Positions 30,638 to 42,790 of a DNA stretch of 64,000 bases are shown piece after piece. Source of the stretch: Escherichia coli. GTDB lineage: Bacteria > Pseudomonadota > Gammaproteobacteria > Enterobacterales > Enterobacteriaceae. The notes beneath the pieces were generated by a model, which saw only the letters and a list, made by a program, of their open reading frames with translations, had not been told where the DNA came from and made no database searches. The position numbers and the translations under genes were made by a program. The stretch lies in the NCBI RefSeq assembly GCF_048403405.1, contig NZ_CP183129.1; one strand, given 5' to 3'. Every line of letters starts with the position of its first letter. The first letter of the stretch is position 1.

Positions 30638-31552
30638 TTATTGCGGCCAAAGCTGCTGGTGTAAAGACTCAACGACATCAGCAATACGCGGACCCATTCC
30701 CAGAATCAGGTTTTGATCAACGGTGATAATGCGCTGGTTTTTCCATGCGGCAGTGTGGGTAATTCCGGCAATAGAACGTAGCCGATTAATATCGCCATCG
30801 ACCATTTGTGAGGTTACGACAATCACTTCTGGATTGGCCGCAATCAGTGATTCTGCACTGTAGCTTTTGTACTGCTGGTGGGTTGCGACGTTTTCTGCTC
30901 CGGCAAGCGAAAGAATGGCGTCCGCGACGCTGCCTTTACCGGCAACCTGTGGCGCACTTCCGCCTGCGGAGAGAATAAACATGGCTTTAACCGGGGCTTT
31001 TTTGGCCGCCACGTTTTGCTGTACTCGCTCCAGGCGTTGGTTGATCTGTGTCACCAGCGCCTCGCCTTGTTCAGGAACCTGTAGCGTTTTTGCCAGTTGG
31101 CGAATGTTGGCGTACATCTGCTCAAGGGTGGCAGGCACACGCGGCAGGGTAACGACGTTGACTTTCTGCGCCCGCAGCTGGTCGAGCACAATTTGTGGCC
31201 CGGCATCCTGCCAGGTAATTACGCTATCCGGGCGAAGTGACAAAATGCCTTCGCTGCTGAGTTGTTTCCAGTAGCCAATATGCGGCAGTTTGGCGGTTTC
31301 TGGTGGGTAAGATGTCGTTTCATCGACACCAACCACGCGTTCGCCAGCGCCCATCGCGTAGATTAGCTCCGTCAGCGATCCTCCTGCGACCACGATACGT
31401 TCGGCAGCCGTTACGCTAAAAGCCCAGCTAAGAGCCAGTACTGCCGTAAACAATTTTTTTCGTTTTACCGCGGTCTTCGCGGCAGAGGCCACGGCTGAAA
31501 TACATAACGTCAGTGGGGAAAAAAGAAACGGCCTGGTGATGATCCTTGGCAT
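30638..31552 (-). CDS. chuT: Periplasmic hemin-binding protein ChuT
   Basis: Start chosen at the internal Met (MPRIITRPF..., ~304 aa) because a Fur box lies inside the longer ORF-track call. Start still uncertain; a GTG start nearer the signal peptide is possible. Confidence 0.8.
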   Translation of the reverse strand: MPRIITRPFLFSPLTLCISAVASAAKTAVKRKKLFTAVLALSWAFSVTAAERIVVAGGSLTELIYAMGAGERVVGVDETTSYPPETAKLPHIGYWKQLSSEGILSLRPDSVITWQDAGPQIVLDQLRAQKVNVVTLPRVPATLEQMYANIRQLAKTLQVPEQGEALVTQINQRLERVQQNVAAKKAPVKAMFILSAGGSAPQVAGKGSVADAILSLAGAENVATHQQYKSYSAESLIAANPEVIVVTSQMVDGDINRLRSIAGITHTAAWKNQRIITVDQNLILGMGPRIADVVESLHQQLWPQ

Positions 31553-31581
31553 AATATGAGAACTCTTATCAAGTTGAGAAT

Positions 31582-31607
31582 GATCATGATTATCATTTGA
31601 GTTATAT
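31582..31607. promoter_or_regulatory. Fur box at the chuT operon promoter (gagAATGATcATgATTATCATT)
   Basis: Close match to the GATAATGATAATCATTATC consensus about 30 bp upstream of the chuT ATG. Confidence 0.6.
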
Positions 31608-31927
31608 ATGAAATACAACCGTCGATTCAATACGCACGGCGTTACAAGCGTATTTATTTTTGATTTTTATCAAGATGCTTCGTCAGCTAACGTTCTTGTT
31701 ACCGACTAAATTTCAGCGCGGGAAAAAGCTGAGAACCCAGAGATATCAAGGCTTGCAGAGCAAAGCGAAGAGAAAATTATCACTGTTAACGACAAAGTTT
31801 AGTGATGAGGTCATGGGGGAATAACCATAAAAACAAAGTGGTTTCCAGGGCGCAGGATAAGTTTCATAACCCCCTGTTTATTGTGTTAATGGCGGTTAAA
31901 AAAAAGCTTGATCATAAAAAATTGATC

Positions 31928-31946
31928 GATAATAATTCTCATTATC
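31928..31946. promoter_or_regulatory. Fur box at the chuA promoter (GATAATAATTCTCATTATC)
   Basis: 15 of 19 positions match the Fur consensus; about 290 bp upstream of the chuA ATG, implying a long 5' leader. Confidence 0.65.
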
Positions 31947-32235
31947 ACGTTTGTATTTAACAAAATACGGCCATATGGATAACAAAGCCATATCATTTAC
32001 AAGGGGTAACGCACAGCGCTCTTCACTCCTGATGGGGCATATCGTTTTGCCTGACAAAGAGGGCGTGCTTTTGCGTATTTGCCGAGATACCAGGCAATTT
32101 CATGGGATATAAACGCCTGTAAACTCACCCGGCGAATATTATCGCTCTGAATTTTAAATAAATTTATTTTTCGCCAGCCACCCCGGTATTAACCCAGGCA
32201 GCCAGCATTTTTTATTTTCCTCATGGAGAATCGCT

Positions 32236-34218
32236 ATGTCACGTCCGCAATTTACCTCGTTGCGTTTGAGTTTGTTGGCTTTGGCTGTTTCTGCCACCTT
32301 GCCAACGTTTGCTTTTGCTACTGAAACCATGACCGTTACGGCAACGGGGAATGCCCGTAGTTCCTTCGAAGCGCCTATGATGGTCAGCGTCATCGACACT
32401 TCCGCTCCTGAAAATCAAACGGCTACTTCAGCCTCCGATCTGCTGCGTCATGTTCCTGGAATTACTCTTGATGGTACCGGACGAACCAACGGCCAGGATG
32501 TAAATATGCGTGGCTATGATCATCGCGGCGTGCTGGTTCTTGTCGATGGTGTTCGCCAGGGAACGGATACCGGACACCTGAATGGCACTTTTCTCGATCC
32601 AGCGCTGATCAAGCGTGTTGAGATTGTTCGCGGACCTTCAGCATTACTGTATGGCAGTGGTGCGCTGGGTGGAGTGATCTCCTACGATACGGTCGATGCA
32701 AAAGATTTATTGCAGGAAGGACAAAGCAGTGGTTTTCGTGTCTTTGGTACTGGCGGCACGGGGGACCATAGCCTGGGATTAGGCGCGAGCGCGTTTGGGC
32801 GAACTGAAAATCTGGATGGTATTGTGGCCTGGTCCAGTCGCGATCGGGGTGATTTACGCCAGAGCAATGGTGAAACCGCGCCGAATGACGAGTCCATTAA
32901 TAACATGCTGGCGAAAGGGACCTGGCAAATTGATTCAGCCCAGTCTCTGAGCGGTTTAGTGCGTTACTACAACAACGACGCGCGTGAACCAAAAAATCCG
33001 CAGACCGTTGAAGCTTCTGATAGCAGCAACCCGATGGTTGATCGTTCAACAATTCAACGCGATGCGCAGCTTTCTTATAAACTCGCCCCGCAGGGCAACG
33101 ACTGGTTAAATGCAGATGCAAAAATTTACTGGTCGGAAGTCCGTATTAATGCGCAAAACACGGGGAGTTCCGGCGAGTATCGTGAACAGATAACAAAAGG
33201 AGCCAGGCTGGAGAACCGTTCCACTCTATTTGCCGACAGTTTCGCTTCTCACTTACTGACATATGGCGGTGAGTATTATCGTCAGGAACAACATCCGGGC
33301 GGCGCGACGACGGGCTTCCCGCAAGCAAAAATCGATTTTAGCTCCGGCTGGCTACAGGATGAGATCACCTTACGAGATCTGCCGATTACTCTGCTTGGCG
33401 GAACCCGCTATGACAGTTATCGCGGTAGCAGCGACGGCTACAAAGATGTTGATGCCGACAAATGGTCATCTCGCGCGGGGATGACTATCAACCCGACTAA
33501 CTGGCTGATGTTATTTGGCTCATATGCCCAGGCATTCCGCGCCCCGACGATGGGCGAAATGTATAACGATTCTAAGCACTTCTCGATTGGTCGCTTCTAT
33601 ACCAACTATTGGGTGCCAAACCCGAACTTACGTCCGGAAACTAACGAAACTCAGGAGTACGGTTTTGGGCTGCGTTTTGATGACCTGATGTTGTCCAATG
33701 ATGCCCTGGAATTTAAAGCCAGCTACTTTGATACCAAAGCGAAGGATTACATCTCCACGACCGTCGATTTCGCGGCGGCGACAACTATGTCGTATAACGT
33801 CCCGAACGCCAAAATCTGGGGCTGGGATGTGATGACGAAATATACCACTGATCTGTTTAGCCTTGATGTGGCCTATAACCGTACCCGCGGCAAAGACACC
33901 GATACCGGCGAATATATCTCCAGTATTAACCCGGATACCGTTACCAGCACCCTGAATATTCCGATCGCTCACAGTGGCTTCTCTGTTGGGTGGGTTGGTA
34001 CGTTTGCCGATCGCTCAACACATATCAGCAGCAGTTACAGCAAACAACCAGGCTATGGCGTGAATGATTTCTACGTCAGTTATCAAGGACAACAGGCGCT
34101 CAAAGGTATGACCACTACTTTGGTGTTGGGTAACGCTTTCGACAAAGAGTACTGGTCGCCACAAGGCATCCCACAGGATGGTCGTAATGGAAAAATTTTC
34201 GTGAGTTATCAATGGTAA
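32236..34218 (+). CDS. chuA: TonB-dependent outer membrane heme/hemoglobin receptor
   Basis: 660 aa; signal peptide, TonB-box-like N-terminus (ETMTVTA), C-terminal beta-barrel ending in aromatic residues (FVSYQW). Confidence 0.93.
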   Translation: MSRPQFTSLRLSLLALAVSATLPTFAFATETMTVTATGNARSSFEAPMMVSVIDTSAPENQTATSASDLLRHVPGITLDGTGRTNGQDVNMRGYDHRGVLVLVDGVRQGTDTGHLNGTFLDPALIKRVEIVRGPSALLYGSGALGGVISYDTVDAKDLLQEGQSSGFRVFGTGGTGDHSLGLGASAFGRTENLDGIVAWSSRDRGDLRQSNGETAPNDESINNMLAKGTWQIDSAQSLSGLVRYYNNDAREPKNPQTVEASDSSNPMVDRSTIQRDAQLSYKLAPQGNDWLNADAKIYWSEVRINAQNTGSSGEYREQITKGARLENRSTLFADSFASHLLTYGGEYYRQEQHPGGATTGFPQAKIDFSSGWLQDEITLRDLPITLLGGTRYDSYRGSSDGYKDVDADKWSSRAGMTINPTNWLMLFGSYAQAFRAPTMGEMYNDSKHFSIGRFYTNYWVPNPNLRPETNETQEYGFGLRFDDLMLSNDALEFKASYFDTKAKDYISTTVDFAAATTMSYNVPNAKIWGWDVMTKYTTDLFSLDVAYNRTRGKDTDTGEYISSINPDTVTSTLNIPIAHSGFSVGWVGTFADRSTHISSSYSKQPGYGVNDFYVSYQGQQALKGMTTTLVLGNAFDKEYWSPQGIPQDGRNGKIFVSYQW

Positions 34219-34266: not shown

Positions 34267-35295
34267 ATGAACCACTACACACGCTGGCTTGAGTTAAAAG
34301 AACAAAATCCCGGAAAGTACGCGCGTGACATCGCAGGTTTAATGAATATTAGCGAAGCAGAACTGGCATTTGCACGCGTCACGCACGATGCGTGGCGGAT
34401 GCGCGGCGATATCCGTGACATTCTGGCGGCGCTCGAAAGTGTTGGCGAGACCAAATGTATTTGTCGTAATGAATATGCAGTCCATGAGCAAGTTGGTGCG
34501 TTCACAAACCAGCATTTGAACGGACATGCCGGATTGATCCTCAATCCACGCGCGCTGGATTTGCGTCTGTTTCTCAATCAATGGGCCAGTGTTTTTCACA
34601 TTAAAGAAAATACGACTCGTGGCGAACGCCAGAGTATTCAGTTCTTTGATCATCAGGGCGATGCATTACTAAAAGTTTATGCCACCGACAATACCGATAT
34701 GGCGGCATGGAGTGAGCTTCTGGCACGGTTTATCACCGATGAGAATACGCCGCTTGAGTTAAAAGCCGTTGATGCGCCAGTCGTTCAAATGCGAGCCGAT
34801 GCCAGTGTGGTCGAGCAAGAGTGGCGGGCGATGACCGACGTTCATCAGTTTTTTACGTTGCTCAAGCGCCACAACCTGACGCGCCAACAGGCGTTCAATC
34901 TGGTGGCAGACGATTTGGCCTGCAAAGTATCCAACAGTGCGTTGGCGCAAATTCTTGAATCTGCACAGCAGGATGGCAATGAAATCATGGTGTTTGTTGG
35001 CAACCGTGGCTGCGTACAGATTTTCACTGGCGTGGTAGAAAAAGTGGTGCCAATGAAAGGTTGGCTGAATATTTTTAACCCGACGTTTACTCTTCATCTA
35101 TTAGAAGAGAGCATTGCTGAAACCTGGGTAACCCGTAAACCTGCTAGTGACGGTTATGTGACCAGTCTGGAATTGTTTGCCCATGATGGTACGCAGATAG
35201 CGCAACTTTATGGTCAACGTACAGAAGGCGAACAGGAGCAAGCGCAATGGCGTAAGCAAATTGCTTCGCTGATACCGGAAGGCGTTGCTGCATAA
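34267..35295 (+). CDS. chuS: Heme oxygenase / heme-degrading protein ChuS
   Basis: 342 aa; immediately downstream of chuA. Confidence 0.88.
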   Translation: MNHYTRWLELKEQNPGKYARDIAGLMNISEAELAFARVTHDAWRMRGDIRDILAALESVGETKCICRNEYAVHEQVGAFTNQHLNGHAGLILNPRALDLRLFLNQWASVFHIKENTTRGERQSIQFFDHQGDALLKVYATDNTDMAAWSELLARFITDENTPLELKAVDAPVVQMRADASVVEQEWRAMTDVHQFFTLLKRHNLTRQQAFNLVADDLACKVSNSALAQILESAQQDGNEIMVFVGNRGCVQIFTGVVEKVVPMKGWLNIFNPTFTLHLLEESIAETWVTRKPASDGYVTSLELFAHDGTQIAQLYGQRTEGEQEQAQWRKQIASLIPEGVAA

Positions 35296-42316: not shown

Positions 42317-42468
42317 ATTGCGCTCCTGATTGTTGCAGGTAGTGTCTCTCTTCGAAGCGGATAAGTCAAAAACATATATGGTTTAACGAATGTGTATGTG
42401 CAGAGGAAGGTAATAGGTGTGAATTTTGAGTTGGCTATTCATTTGAAAGGAGGTCTGAATCAGGACGT

Positions 42469-42555
42469 AAAAAAACCGACTTTGCGTCGGTTTTTTACTT
42501 TCCAGCCCTGAGTTGGTGGCTCTGGCTGGAGTGAGAGAGCTCTTATCTAACAGTT
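42469..42555 (-). ncRNA. agrA: agrA-like small RNA (repeat unit homologous and antisense to dinQ); ends approximate
   Basis: Minus-strand terminator (ccgac-gcaaa-gucgg plus U-run) at 42469-42498; adjacent 26-nt block ctggagtgagagagctcttatctaac also occurs in the dinQ leader. Confidence 0.5.
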
Positions 42556-42703
42556 CAATACTATTAGCCAGTGGCTAACATTGCAAGAATTAGCGATTTC
42601 TTCAGCTGGAGAAGGGACAGTTTGCTATACATGTTGGTGAAAGAGGATTTATATACTTTCATCGGGTCGCTGCCGTACCAAGCCTTGTCCGAATCCGGAC
42701 GTA

Positions 42704-42790
42704 AAAAAAACCGACTTCGCGTCGGTTTTTTACTTTCCAGCCCTGAGTTGGTGGCTCTGGTTGGAGTGAGAATGCCATCATCTAACGCAT
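42704..42790 (-). ncRNA. agrB: agrB-like small RNA (second repeat unit); ends approximate
   Basis: Second copy of the terminator plus the ttggagtgagaatgccatcatctaac block; the proximal copy is the one expected to be antisense to dinQ. Confidence 0.5.

Follow-up and report, generated by a model that had tools for sequence, protein, structure and literature searches.

The chuA leader of Escherichia coli: a known FourU RNA thermometer next to an HPRE-like twin motif

The chuA locus and its promoter

The window, a 64,000-nt stretch of Escherichia coli DNA, carries on its plus strand an open reading frame for a 660-aa TonB-dependent heme receptor, which the RefSeq annotation of 100%-identical E. 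coli genomes names chuA, with chuS downstream (Table 1). The 3' end of the Fur box upstream of chuA lies 290 nt from the ATG, at the distance of about 290 nt given for the best Fur box in a first-pass annotation made from the letters alone, and the box aligns with the GATAATGATTATC box that precedes hemP in other genera. It overlaps both the −10 element of a promoter-like site (9/12 in a consensus scan; 0/39 differences between E. coli leader alleles) and the inferred transcription start. The position of this site agrees with the start mapped 291 nt upstream of the ATG by dRNA-seq in EHEC Sakai (Sy & Tree 2022, PMC9002310), which bears out the long 5' UTR that the first-pass annotation had deduced, rather than a start within ~50 nt of the ATG. 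Taking the EHEC Sakai 5' UTR together with the mapping of its U273A mutation to position −19 (32217), we place the chuAS +1 at about 31945 on the plus strand, probably just after the −10/Fur box; U273A of Sy & Tree and the −19 U of Kouse et al. both fall on 32217, confirming the register. We are highly confident that the region comprises a Fur-repressed promoter and the 291-nt leader of chuAS, ending in the known shuA/chuA FourU RNA thermometer.

Table 1. Features in and around the chuA leader (positions in the window)
Feature	Positions	Strand	Remarks
Promoter-like site, σ70-like	31908–31936	+	−35 TTGATC 31908–31913, 17-nt spacer, −10 AATAAT 31931–31936
Fur box GATAATAATTCTCATTATC	31928–31946	+	16/19 to the 19-nt consensus; reverse strand 17/19
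Leader interior, position of hemP in other Enterobacterales	31947–32167	+	includes 45-codon ORF 31975–32112
HPRE-like motif 1 GCCAGCCACCCCGG	32173–32186	+	hardly varies among 68 distinct orthologous spacers
HPRE-like motif 2 CCCAGGCAGCCAGC	32193–32206	+	ends 30 nt before the ATG
Predicted CyaR pairing site	32193–32212	+	motif 2 and first U-tract; −18.1 kcal/mol with CyaR nt 19–40
Distal U6 tract	32208–32213	+	homologous (alignment) to the CUUUUC anti-SD of other genera; predicted backup SD partner
FourU hairpin	32214–32231	+	5' arm AUUUUCC 32214–32220, loop UCAU 32221–32224, 3' arm GGAGAAU 32225–32231; Rfam RF02597 structure line
Shine-Dalgarno (SD) GGAG of chuA	32225–32228	+	invariant in 68 orthologs
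chuA	32236–34218	+	ATG 32236–32238
chuS	34267–35295		downstream of chuA

The FourU hairpin at the ribosome-binding site

The first-pass annotation had proposed a FourU-type thermometer like those of the shuA/chuA leaders, and family membership together with published reporters and point mutants (Kouse et al. 2013, PMC3660397) confirms it. Rfam family RF02597 (shuA/chuA thermoregulator) matches 32207–32238 with 60.1 bits, above its gathering score of 58 (E 1.2e-8), over its full length (1–32) and with 32/32 positions identical to the consensus; the match ends on, and includes, the chuA ATG, and RF02597 is the sole Rfam family with E ≤ 0.01 in 31400–32500. The agsA-type FourU family RF01795 gave no match at E ≤ 10 in the same interval, the chuA element being filed under its own family. 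We regard a Hammerhead_HH9 match at 31424–31499, with 20.3 bits for a gathering score of 52, as a chance result.

The U-rich run UUUUUUAUUUU (= TTTTTTATTTT) occupies 32208–32218, position 32207 being an A, so that the run reported earlier at 32207–32217 is present but displaced by one base, whereas the GGAG was placed exactly. The proposed pairing of the U-tract with the SD holds for its 3' part only: in the validated hairpin the UUUU at 32215–32218, with A32214 and the CC at 32219–32220, pairs with GGAGAAU, and the U6 at its 5' end lies outside. U32215–U32218 pair with A32230, A32229, G32228, and A32227, including a U·G wobble (32217–32228), and C32219–G32226 and C32220–G32225 close the loop; four consecutive U's paired with the SD in a short hairpin are the feature of the FourU mechanistic class. 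This hairpin is the minimum free energy structure whether folded alone or within the full leader; its pair probabilities are 0.74 to 1.0 at 25 to 42°C, and in isolation it has −8.4 kcal/mol at 25°C and −6.1 kcal/mol at 37°C. In silico at 37°C, the stabilizing U32217C gives −8.7 kcal/mol and the destabilizing U32217A and C32219A give −2.5 and −1.7 kcal/mol, the same direction as the published experiments. Folding the leader at 25 and 37°C, the check suggested in the first-pass annotation, thus recovered the SD hairpin but no opening: the SD stays >95% paired up to 45°C in a nearest-neighbor model that ignores ribosome competition, and computation alone therefore cannot demonstrate thermosensing. 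Nor is the hairpin exceptionally stable, since 32200–32245 has a z-score of −1.56 and 14/200 shuffles fold equally well.

The significance of the hairpin comes instead from its identity to a validated element, its conservation, and the comparison of alleles. The segment 32168–32250, which includes the final ~70 nt of the leader, is identical in 2184 of the 2235 chuA-positive complete E. coli genomes. Two leader alleles exist in E. coli, with 0/71 differences in the conserved 3' part and interiors ~25% apart; their flanks are identical or ~5% diverged (chuA third codon positions). Between Escherichia lineages the interior drifts almost neutrally, diverging by ~23%, close to the 25 to 31% of third codon positions. 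The interior in this strain is the EHEC/Shigella-like allele, ~95% identical to that of O145 and ~75% to the UPEC-type one that Kouse et al. studied.

Our own analysis establishes the sequence, fold, family membership, and conservation of the element, and temperature dependence, sufficiency of 32 nt, and the effects of point mutations have been demonstrated for the identical sequence (PMC3660397, PMC9002310). With the 32-nt element alone, translation rises from 25 to 37°C while the mRNA level stays unchanged, so that reporter translation does depend on temperature, and stabilizing U>C and destabilizing mutations shifted expression as predicted in both shuA and UPEC chuA (Kouse et al. 2013, PMC3660397), while U273A caused a 2.6-fold increase at 25°C (Sy & Tree 2022, PMC9002310). 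From the identity of the sequence we infer that this strain behaves like the published ones. The U-tract at the SD thus belongs to the shuA/chuA FourU thermometer already described in pathogenic E. coli and Shigella—a textbook example since 2013 and a curated Rfam family—and finding it here is not new in itself. In the full-length leader the fold change is modest, and the contributions of Rho, of CyaR, and of the inhibitory region +177..+217 are comparable or larger (Sy & Tree 2022, PMC9002310).

Compared with the shuA/chuA thermoregulator of Kouse et al. (RF02597), the element has the same 32-nt sequence, hairpin, position (−29 to +3), and Fur-regulated long leader, and does not differ in itself; only the allele of the leader interior differs from their UPEC-type one. 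The FourU elements of Salmonella agsA (RF01795) and Yersinia lcrF likewise place four U's on the SD, with a U·G wobble, in a short zipper-like hairpin opening at ~25 to 37°C. Yet they share neither sequence nor model homology with chuA, where a single 7-bp hairpin ends a 291-nt leader instead of a two-hairpin short UTR, and the FourU class is defined by mechanism, not descent. The hemP-hemR1 spacer of Yersinia enterocolitica (Jaworska et al. 2018) also has a Fur-regulated promoter upstream and a U-tract facing the SD of the orthologous receptor gene. Unlike chuA, it keeps hemP and has an unpaired G-G in its hairpin, and although this FourU-like hairpin is comparable, HemR1 is not thermoregulated (PMC6158557), so the motif alone is insufficient as proof.

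The hemP position and the twin GCCAGC element

In all 74 chuA loci from genera other than Escherichia, an intact hemP lies between the same Fur box and chuA, and it is absent from all Escherichia loci; a Citrobacter hemP found no blastn match in 5,426 E. coli genomes. This slot would account for the 291-nt leader, which probably sits in the former position of hemP: the interior measures 224 to 226 nt, compared with a median of 235 nt in the other genera, its flanks (Fur box and HPRE) are held in common, and the 45-codon ORF starts where the hemP ATG sits in relatives. The 45-aa product had no match to Pfam (PF10636) at E ≤ 1, compared with ~1e-17 for intact neighbors, the HemP protein HMM gave only E > 1 against three-frame leader translations, and a hemP DNA profile run with nhmmer at default settings gave no match anywhere in the window. 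Weak residual similarity appears with more sensitive comparisons: nhmmer --max gave 2.6 to 4.4 bits, collinear at the 5' end and above all 300 shuffles, semiglobal z-scores reached 2.4 to 4.9 in 10 of the 14 comparisons of the interior with hemP, and tblastn of three HemP proteins against Escherichia leaders returned weak matches only (best E 0.067 in a tiny database). Because of the empty default nhmmer search and the HMM values above 1, we do not regard the interior as proven to be a hemP pseudogene. The region needed for Rho-dependent repression, +177..+217 (Sy & Tree 2022, PMC9002310), corresponds to 32121–32161 here.

Inside the invariant 3' segment lies a twin GCCAGC element (32173–32206) that resembles HmuP-responsive elements (HPREs), with paired GCCAGC(C)-type motifs in the 5' UTR of a heme receptor gene close to its ATG. 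HPREs were reportedly defined by Amarelle et al. in 2019 for Ensifer shmR, with a taxonomic scope of Alpha- and Betaproteobacteria. The twin motif is present in 80/80 loci and in 6/6 distant hemP-receptor spacers, and a covariance model built from five of the distant spacers matches 32170–32209 with 36.1 bits (E ~1e-8), the next match having 15.2 bits. At one distant HemP locus (L088, high GC), both a downstream receptor gene and the motif are missing. A protein homology search brought up closely related HemP proteins only. An HPRE of the same kind, CCCGCAAGCCAGCCGACAGCCAGCCAGCG, lies at −26 of chuR in C. violaceum, and ChuP/HmuP exert post-transcriptional control (de Lima et al. 2022, PMC9131926); HmuP/HemP-dependent receptor expression through the motifs is known only for Ensifer and C. 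violaceum (PMC9131926). Like the HPREs of Ensifer shmR and C. violaceum chuR/vbuA, the element consists of two GCCAGC(C)-type motifs in the 5' UTR of a TonB-dependent heme receptor gene, ending ~25 to 30 nt before the ATG. In relatives these elements lie downstream of hemP/hmuP, whereas this partner was not found in any Escherichia locus; the enterobacterial form (GCCAGCCACCCAGG ... CCCAGGCAGCCAGC) also exceeds theirs in length and is able to form a hairpin containing CA/CA loops. Judged by sequence, an RNA element of the HemP/HmuP type appears to persist in E. coli, an organism without the protein, which we regard as a moderately interesting side result.

In the RNAalifold consensus, motifs 1 and 2 are predicted to form a hairpin of 8 G-C pairs with CA/CA 2x2 internal loops between them. 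Changes within it comprise one compensatory GC>AU and one A·C>G·U in E. albertii, and distant loci have C-G or U-A at its C·A positions. Across the 68 spacers RNAalifold returned this hairpin only and no SD helices; tested as named structures in the orthologs, the SD helices showed little true covariation. We rejected the idea that every hemP-positive relative has a stronger local SD helix than Escherichia, because the helices of Kluyvera and the Citrobacter NCU1 group are equally weak.

Motif 2 is also where CyaR is predicted to pair. In 24-nt windows, used because RNAduplex on the entire leader aligned CyaR over a meaningless 150 nt, the duplex listed in Table 1 is the best local one near the SD; it agrees with the site published as "about 15 nt upstream of the SD" (PMC9002310) and is probably the same. 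As for the U6 left outside the validated hairpin, this distal tract is the main predicted partner of the SD in 52/68 orthologs, and in silico U32217A moves SD pairing onto it (P 0.83 at 25°C). The second U-tract may act as a backup anti-SD, which would explain why U273A is only partly de-repressed and still CyaR responsive.

Mechanism and origin of the leader

In this strain, very probably as in the published ones, iron limitation causes Fur to leave the box overlapping the −10 element, allowing transcription from ~31945. In the resulting mRNA, AUUUUCC pairs with GGAGAAU, four U's facing the AGAA/G of the ribosome-binding site, and this weak 7-bp hairpin hides the SD at ~25°C and opens enough at 37°C for ribosome loading. 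ChuA production therefore requires both low iron and host temperature. Further published layers act on the same leader, namely, activation by CyaR, Rho termination at +271 (~32215), and Hfq/RyhB/Esr41 at the ribosome-binding site.

The hairpin and U-tracts could serve mainly as a platform for sRNAs, Hfq, and Rho (RyhB, Esr41, CyaR, Rho at +271), with temperature a minor modifier: Hfq crosslinks peak at the ribosome-binding site, termination at +271 falls inside the 5' arm of the hairpin, activation by CyaR is independent of U273A, deletion of +177..+217 causes a 9.2-fold de-repression (all PMC9002310), and the predicted CyaR duplex covers part of the same U-rich run. We nevertheless find this improbable, as the isolated 32-nt element, without the upstream leader, thermoregulates when driven by a foreign promoter (Kouse et al. 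2013, PMC3660397), the published layers are independent and additive with none abolishing the temperature effect, and unchanged thermoregulation in hfq and rho-inhibited backgrounds has already been partly shown. That the U-run arose by chance near an SD in AT-rich intergenic DNA and has no regulatory role would be compatible with the unremarkable local fold and with the promiscuous pairing of U with A and G, slid controls reaching up to 80% pairing. This reading has practically no chance of being right: the run is identical to a curated, validated element, is invariant in 2184 genomes and across alleles that differ by 25% elsewhere, and a lack of function is refuted by published mutagenesis.

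A different kind of alternative concerns where the thermometer came from and does not contradict it. SD sequestration may chiefly be left over from an RNA switch that HemP/HmuP controlled in an ancestral hemP-chuA operon, with thermosensing derived or secondary. In relatives with hemP, motif 2 and the following GCGCUUUUC are predicted to pair with the region from the SD to the AUG, a pairing that HemP would relieve; in Escherichia, which lost hemP, the twin motifs would now fold together, leaving only the short FourU hairpin to gate the SD. Besides the distribution of hemP, the presence of the twin motif in every locus, the match of the distant-spacer model, and the C. violaceum precedent, several predictions are in line with such a switch: 65/65 hemP-positive orthologs favor the conformer joining motif 2 to the start region (mean, +5.1 kcal/mol), all three distinct Escherichia sequences favor the motif 1:motif 2 hairpin, and the extended structure is 88.5% paired versus 38 to 47% in slid controls. 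On the other hand, the connection of HemP with the motif in enterobacteria is drawn from sequence and predicted structure, covariation is weak (most columns are invariant and changes mostly one-sided), the Escherichia contrast amounts to one evolutionary event, the homology of the interior to hemP is marginal, and Kluyvera and the Citrobacter NCU1 group, the closest relatives, have SD helices of −6.5 to −6.7 against −6.1 in E. coli. Weighing these points, we consider a relic switch possible but rather unlikely.

Slightly less doubtful, though still tentative, is the broader reading that the leader is what remains of an ancestral hemP-chuA operon in which hemP was erased in place, a protein-dependent (perhaps heme-sensing) switch having become a thermometer with sRNA input. 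The comparative picture defines a constrained 70 nt and offers a testable route from a protein-controlled leader to an RNA thermometer. Under this operon-remnant reading, the twin GCCAGC element would have been kept invariant without a protein partner, and the changes GCGCUUUUC>GCAUUUUUU and GGAGAGUUGCU>GGAGAAUCGCU in Escherichia are predicted to release the long helix from the SD to the AUG. The same substitutions would leave gating to the short, heat-labile FourU hairpin and give the old element 8 bp of complementarity to CyaR.

A FourU thermometer in the chuA leader

The divergent intergenic region between chuT/shuT and chuA lies within a haem-uptake island flanked by yhiD and dctR, and 2236 of the 5426 complete E. 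coli genomes searched carry the 901-nt query around it, strain GN02461 with 100% identity. The first-pass annotation had proposed that a long chuA leader begins near a Fur box and ends in a U-tract occluding the Shine-Dalgarno (SD) sequence, as in the shuA/chuA thermometer. The Fur box, the GGAG and the ATG all lie where it placed them (see the table), and the chuA start site published from dRNA-seq gives a 291-nt UTR (Sy & Tree 2022, PMC9002310), which puts +1 at about 31945; the leader is thus long, and transcription does not start within ~50 nt of the ATG. The U-run is present as UUUUUUAUUUU, at 32208-32218, one base away from the position first assigned to it.

Features of the chuA leader and of the surrounding window
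Feature	Position	Strand	Basis or remark
GadY sRNA	16571-16684	-	Rfam gathering-score match
ES205 sRNA	22462-22533	-	Rfam gathering-score match
chuT/shuT-chuA divergent intergenic region	31553-32235		chuT/shuT on minus strand, start 31552; chuA 32236-34218
chuT/shuT Fur box	31576-31594	-	16/19; coincides with shuT transcript +1..+19
Fur box GATAATAATTCTCATTATC	31928-31946	+	16/19 versus consensus
Promoter-like TTGATC-17-AATAAT	overlaps Fur box 31928-31946	+	consensus scan
45-codon ORF (MDNKAISFTRGN...)	31975-32112	+	start at hemP start-codon position
HPRE-like motif 1 GCCAGCCACCCCGG	32173-32186	+	within constrained segment
HPRE-like motif 2 CCCAGGCAGCCAGC	32193-32206	+	within constrained segment
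Thermometer hairpin	5' arm AUUUUCC 32214-32220, loop UCAU, 3' arm GGAGAAU 32225-32231	+	RF02597, folding
chuA SD GGAG	32225-32228	+	sequence
chuA ATG	32236	+	sequence
AgrB antisense RNA, two copies	42467-42550, 42702-42785	-	Rfam gathering-score match

The Rfam family RF02597 ("shuA/chuA 5' UTR thermoregulator") matches 32207-32238 with 60.1 bits (gathering score 58), and the segment equals the family consensus at 32/32 positions. In ViennaRNA the isolated element folds as a hairpin containing a U.G wobble (32217-32228), with a free energy of -8.4 kcal/mol at 25 C that weakens to -6.1 at 37 C, and this hairpin is retained in the full 336-nt leader fold (pair probabilities 0.74-1.0). Folding returned the SD-pairing hairpin at both temperatures, but the model predicted no melting up to 45 C, so that folding alone is no evidence of thermosensing; the stability is also unremarkable against shuffles (z -1.56).

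In published experiments, cells contain more ShuA and reporter protein at 37 C than at 25 C, with no such rise in mRNA, so translation is not temperature independent, and a 32-nt element alone confers the effect behind a foreign promoter; U>C at -19 (32217 in the window, where it makes a C-G pair) reduces expression at 37 C, the destabilising changes C-17A in shuA and U-19A in chuA increase it at 25 C, and the 293-nt chuA leader of UPEC behaves in the same way (Kouse et al. 2013, PMC3660397). The U273A change, again at 32217, raised expression 2.6-fold at 25 C and confirmed the thermometer (PMC9002310). Our in silico mutants shift in the same directions as the published ones (U32217C -8.7, U32217A -2.5 and C32219A -1.7 kcal/mol, against -6.1 for the wild type). 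The observation is confirmed, and the Rfam match and the published reporters and mutants (PMC3660397, PMC9002310) support its interpretation as a FourU thermometer, a finding that is already known from the literature and from Rfam.

The same leader is subject to further control: CyaR activates chuA from a site some 15 nt ahead of the SD, Rho terminates transcription at +271 (about 32215), and the segment +177..+217 (32121-32161) is strongly inhibitory (PMC9002310). The same study reported Term-seq 3' ends at +297 (about 32241). Just within the chuA coding region, a small terminator-like hairpin, CGCAAUUUACCUCGUUGCG followed by UUUGAGUUUG (32246-32264, plus strand), reappears in full-leader folds.

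The leader interior and the hemP slot

We sampled 80 chuA loci, one genome per species, spanning Kluyvera, Citrobacter, Enterobacter, Cedecea, Buttiauxella, Leclercia, Limnobaculum, Pragia, Leminorella and others. In all 74 non-Escherichia loci with upstream DNA, an intact hemP (product of 54-64 aa with C-terminus GKLILTK; Pfam PF10636, E about 1e-17) separates the conserved Fur box from chuA, its median distance to chuA being 77 nt. hemP is absent from all Escherichia loci, comprising both E. coli leader alleles, E. albertii and the cryptic lineages, and blastn of Citrobacter hemP DNA found no match in the 5,426 E. coli genomes; that the Shigella locus lacks hemP had been noted previously (PMC6158557).

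The Escherichia interior, 224-226 nt long versus a median of 235 for the hemP-containing interval, begins with ATGGATAAC where the hemP start would be. The evidence for its homology to hemP is only marginal: nhmmer found nothing at default settings and 2.6-4.4 bits with --max, a score exceeding all 300 shuffles, and semiglobal alignment gave z-scores of 2.4-4.9 in 10 of 14 comparisons. We therefore call the interior a positional relic. It likely represents hemP decayed in place; less probably, another sequence replaced hemP. An ORF of 34-53 codons with a variable C-terminus occurs in every Escherichia lineage examined. The one in the window, which starts at the hemP start position, has neither a Pfam match nor an obvious SD; its translation, if any, could matter for Rho access.

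Among Escherichia lineages the interior diverges by about 19-28% (mostly 21-25%), near the 25-31% of chuA third-codon positions, versus merely 0-7.8% in the final 64-71 nt before the ATG. E. coli itself holds two interior alleles (31947-32167 in the window versus the UPEC-type and O145 loci), 24.9% apart, a gap as large as between different Escherichia species, whereas their chuA genes diverge at just 5.2% of third positions. Both are identical at the promoter (0/39) and from the HPRE-like motifs to the ATG (0/71). This pattern indicates an old or imported allele between conserved flanks, and suggests recombination or ancient polymorphism bounded by them. Of the 2235 chuA-positive genomes, 2184 share one sequence across 32168-32250.

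Twin HPRE-like motifs and a proposed origin of the thermometer leader

Motifs 1 and 2 resemble the HmuP-responsive elements (HPREs) upstream of haem receptor genes, such as CCCGCAAGCCAGCCGACAGCCAGCCAGCG at -26 of C. violaceum chuR; ChuP/HmuP act post-transcriptionally (PMC9131926). Motifs 1 and 2 are nearly invariant across 68 distinct orthologs, as far as Budviciaceae, where ChuA identity falls to 57-59%. A HemP profile search returned 5,703 cluster representatives, and the twin motif was present in the spacer of each of the six distant hemP loci with a downstream receptor gene (GC content 0.39 to 0.71). A covariance model made from five of these spacers hit 32170-32209, which has no Rfam family, with 36.1 bits (E about 1e-8; runner-up in the 64 kb, 15.2 bits), and gave exactly one match, at the same place, in 80/80 chuA loci. 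RNAalifold pairs the motifs through four 2-bp G-C steps with CA/CA loops between them. Support for this modeled pairing is limited, most columns being invariant: it comprises one compensatory change (GC>AU) and, in E. albertii, one change of A.C>G.U, and in the distant loci the C.A positions are replaced by C-G or U-A, and the outer pair by A-U.

In 52 of 68 orthologs the main predicted partner of the SD is the CUUUUC following motif 2, which is homologous to the distal U6 of E. coli (32208-32213); in only 13, Escherichia among them, is it the proximal tract (32215-32218). Motif 2 GGCA can pair with AUG-YY (99% paired). Codon 2 of chuA starts with YY in 67/68 orthologs (alignment columns 89-90; 32239-32240) while its residue varies (P, S, L), which fits a constraint on the RNA, through pairing with the motif 2 GG, rather than on the protein. 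The extended structure of 19 pairs reaches 88.5% pairing, compared to 38-47% in slid controls, and its true covariation is weak. All 65 hemP-positive sequences favour the conformer joining motif 2 to the start region (mean 5.1 kcal/mol), whereas the three distinct Escherichia sequences favour the motif 1:motif 2 hairpin (2.4-3.3 kcal/mol), a contrast that counts as a single evolutionary event. The duplex predicted for CyaR spans motif 2 plus the U6 tract (32193-32212, -18.1 kcal/mol), in agreement with the published location. In silico, U273A moves SD pairing onto the distal tract with a probability of 0.83 at 25 C, which would account for both the only partial de-repression of this mutant and its retained CyaR response. 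These models suggest that a HemP-dependent leader may have been turned into a thermometer-plus-sRNA leader; against such a conversion, the local helices of the nearest hemP-positive relatives are equally weak. The putative hemP relic and its HPRE context are the sole part that may be new, a reading that we rate as somewhat less likely than not.

Other elements and rearranged loci

chuT/shuT has a short leader of its own (31553-31594, minus strand), transcription beginning 42 nt before the start codon, and a second RNA thermometer has been published for the shuT 5'UTR (Wei et al. 2017, PMC5458455). The GadY, ES205 and AgrB matches fit the acid-fitness island and the dinQ/ars neighbourhood. In Escherichia sp. 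MOD1-EC7003 the leader carries an insertion of ~125 nt (around 2370-2495 of that locus, window position ~32108), and a similar sequence lies between hemP and chuA in Buttiauxella massiliensis; we take this insertion (...GAGCTTACATAAGTAAGTGATTCGGGTGA...) to resemble an ERIC/IRU repeat. In E. coli WP4-S17-ESBL-03 the match ends within the chuA leader (window ~31971) and an IS26 transposase gene adjoining a truncated rlmJ follows the junction; IS26 appears to have removed chuA-chuS together with neighbouring genes.
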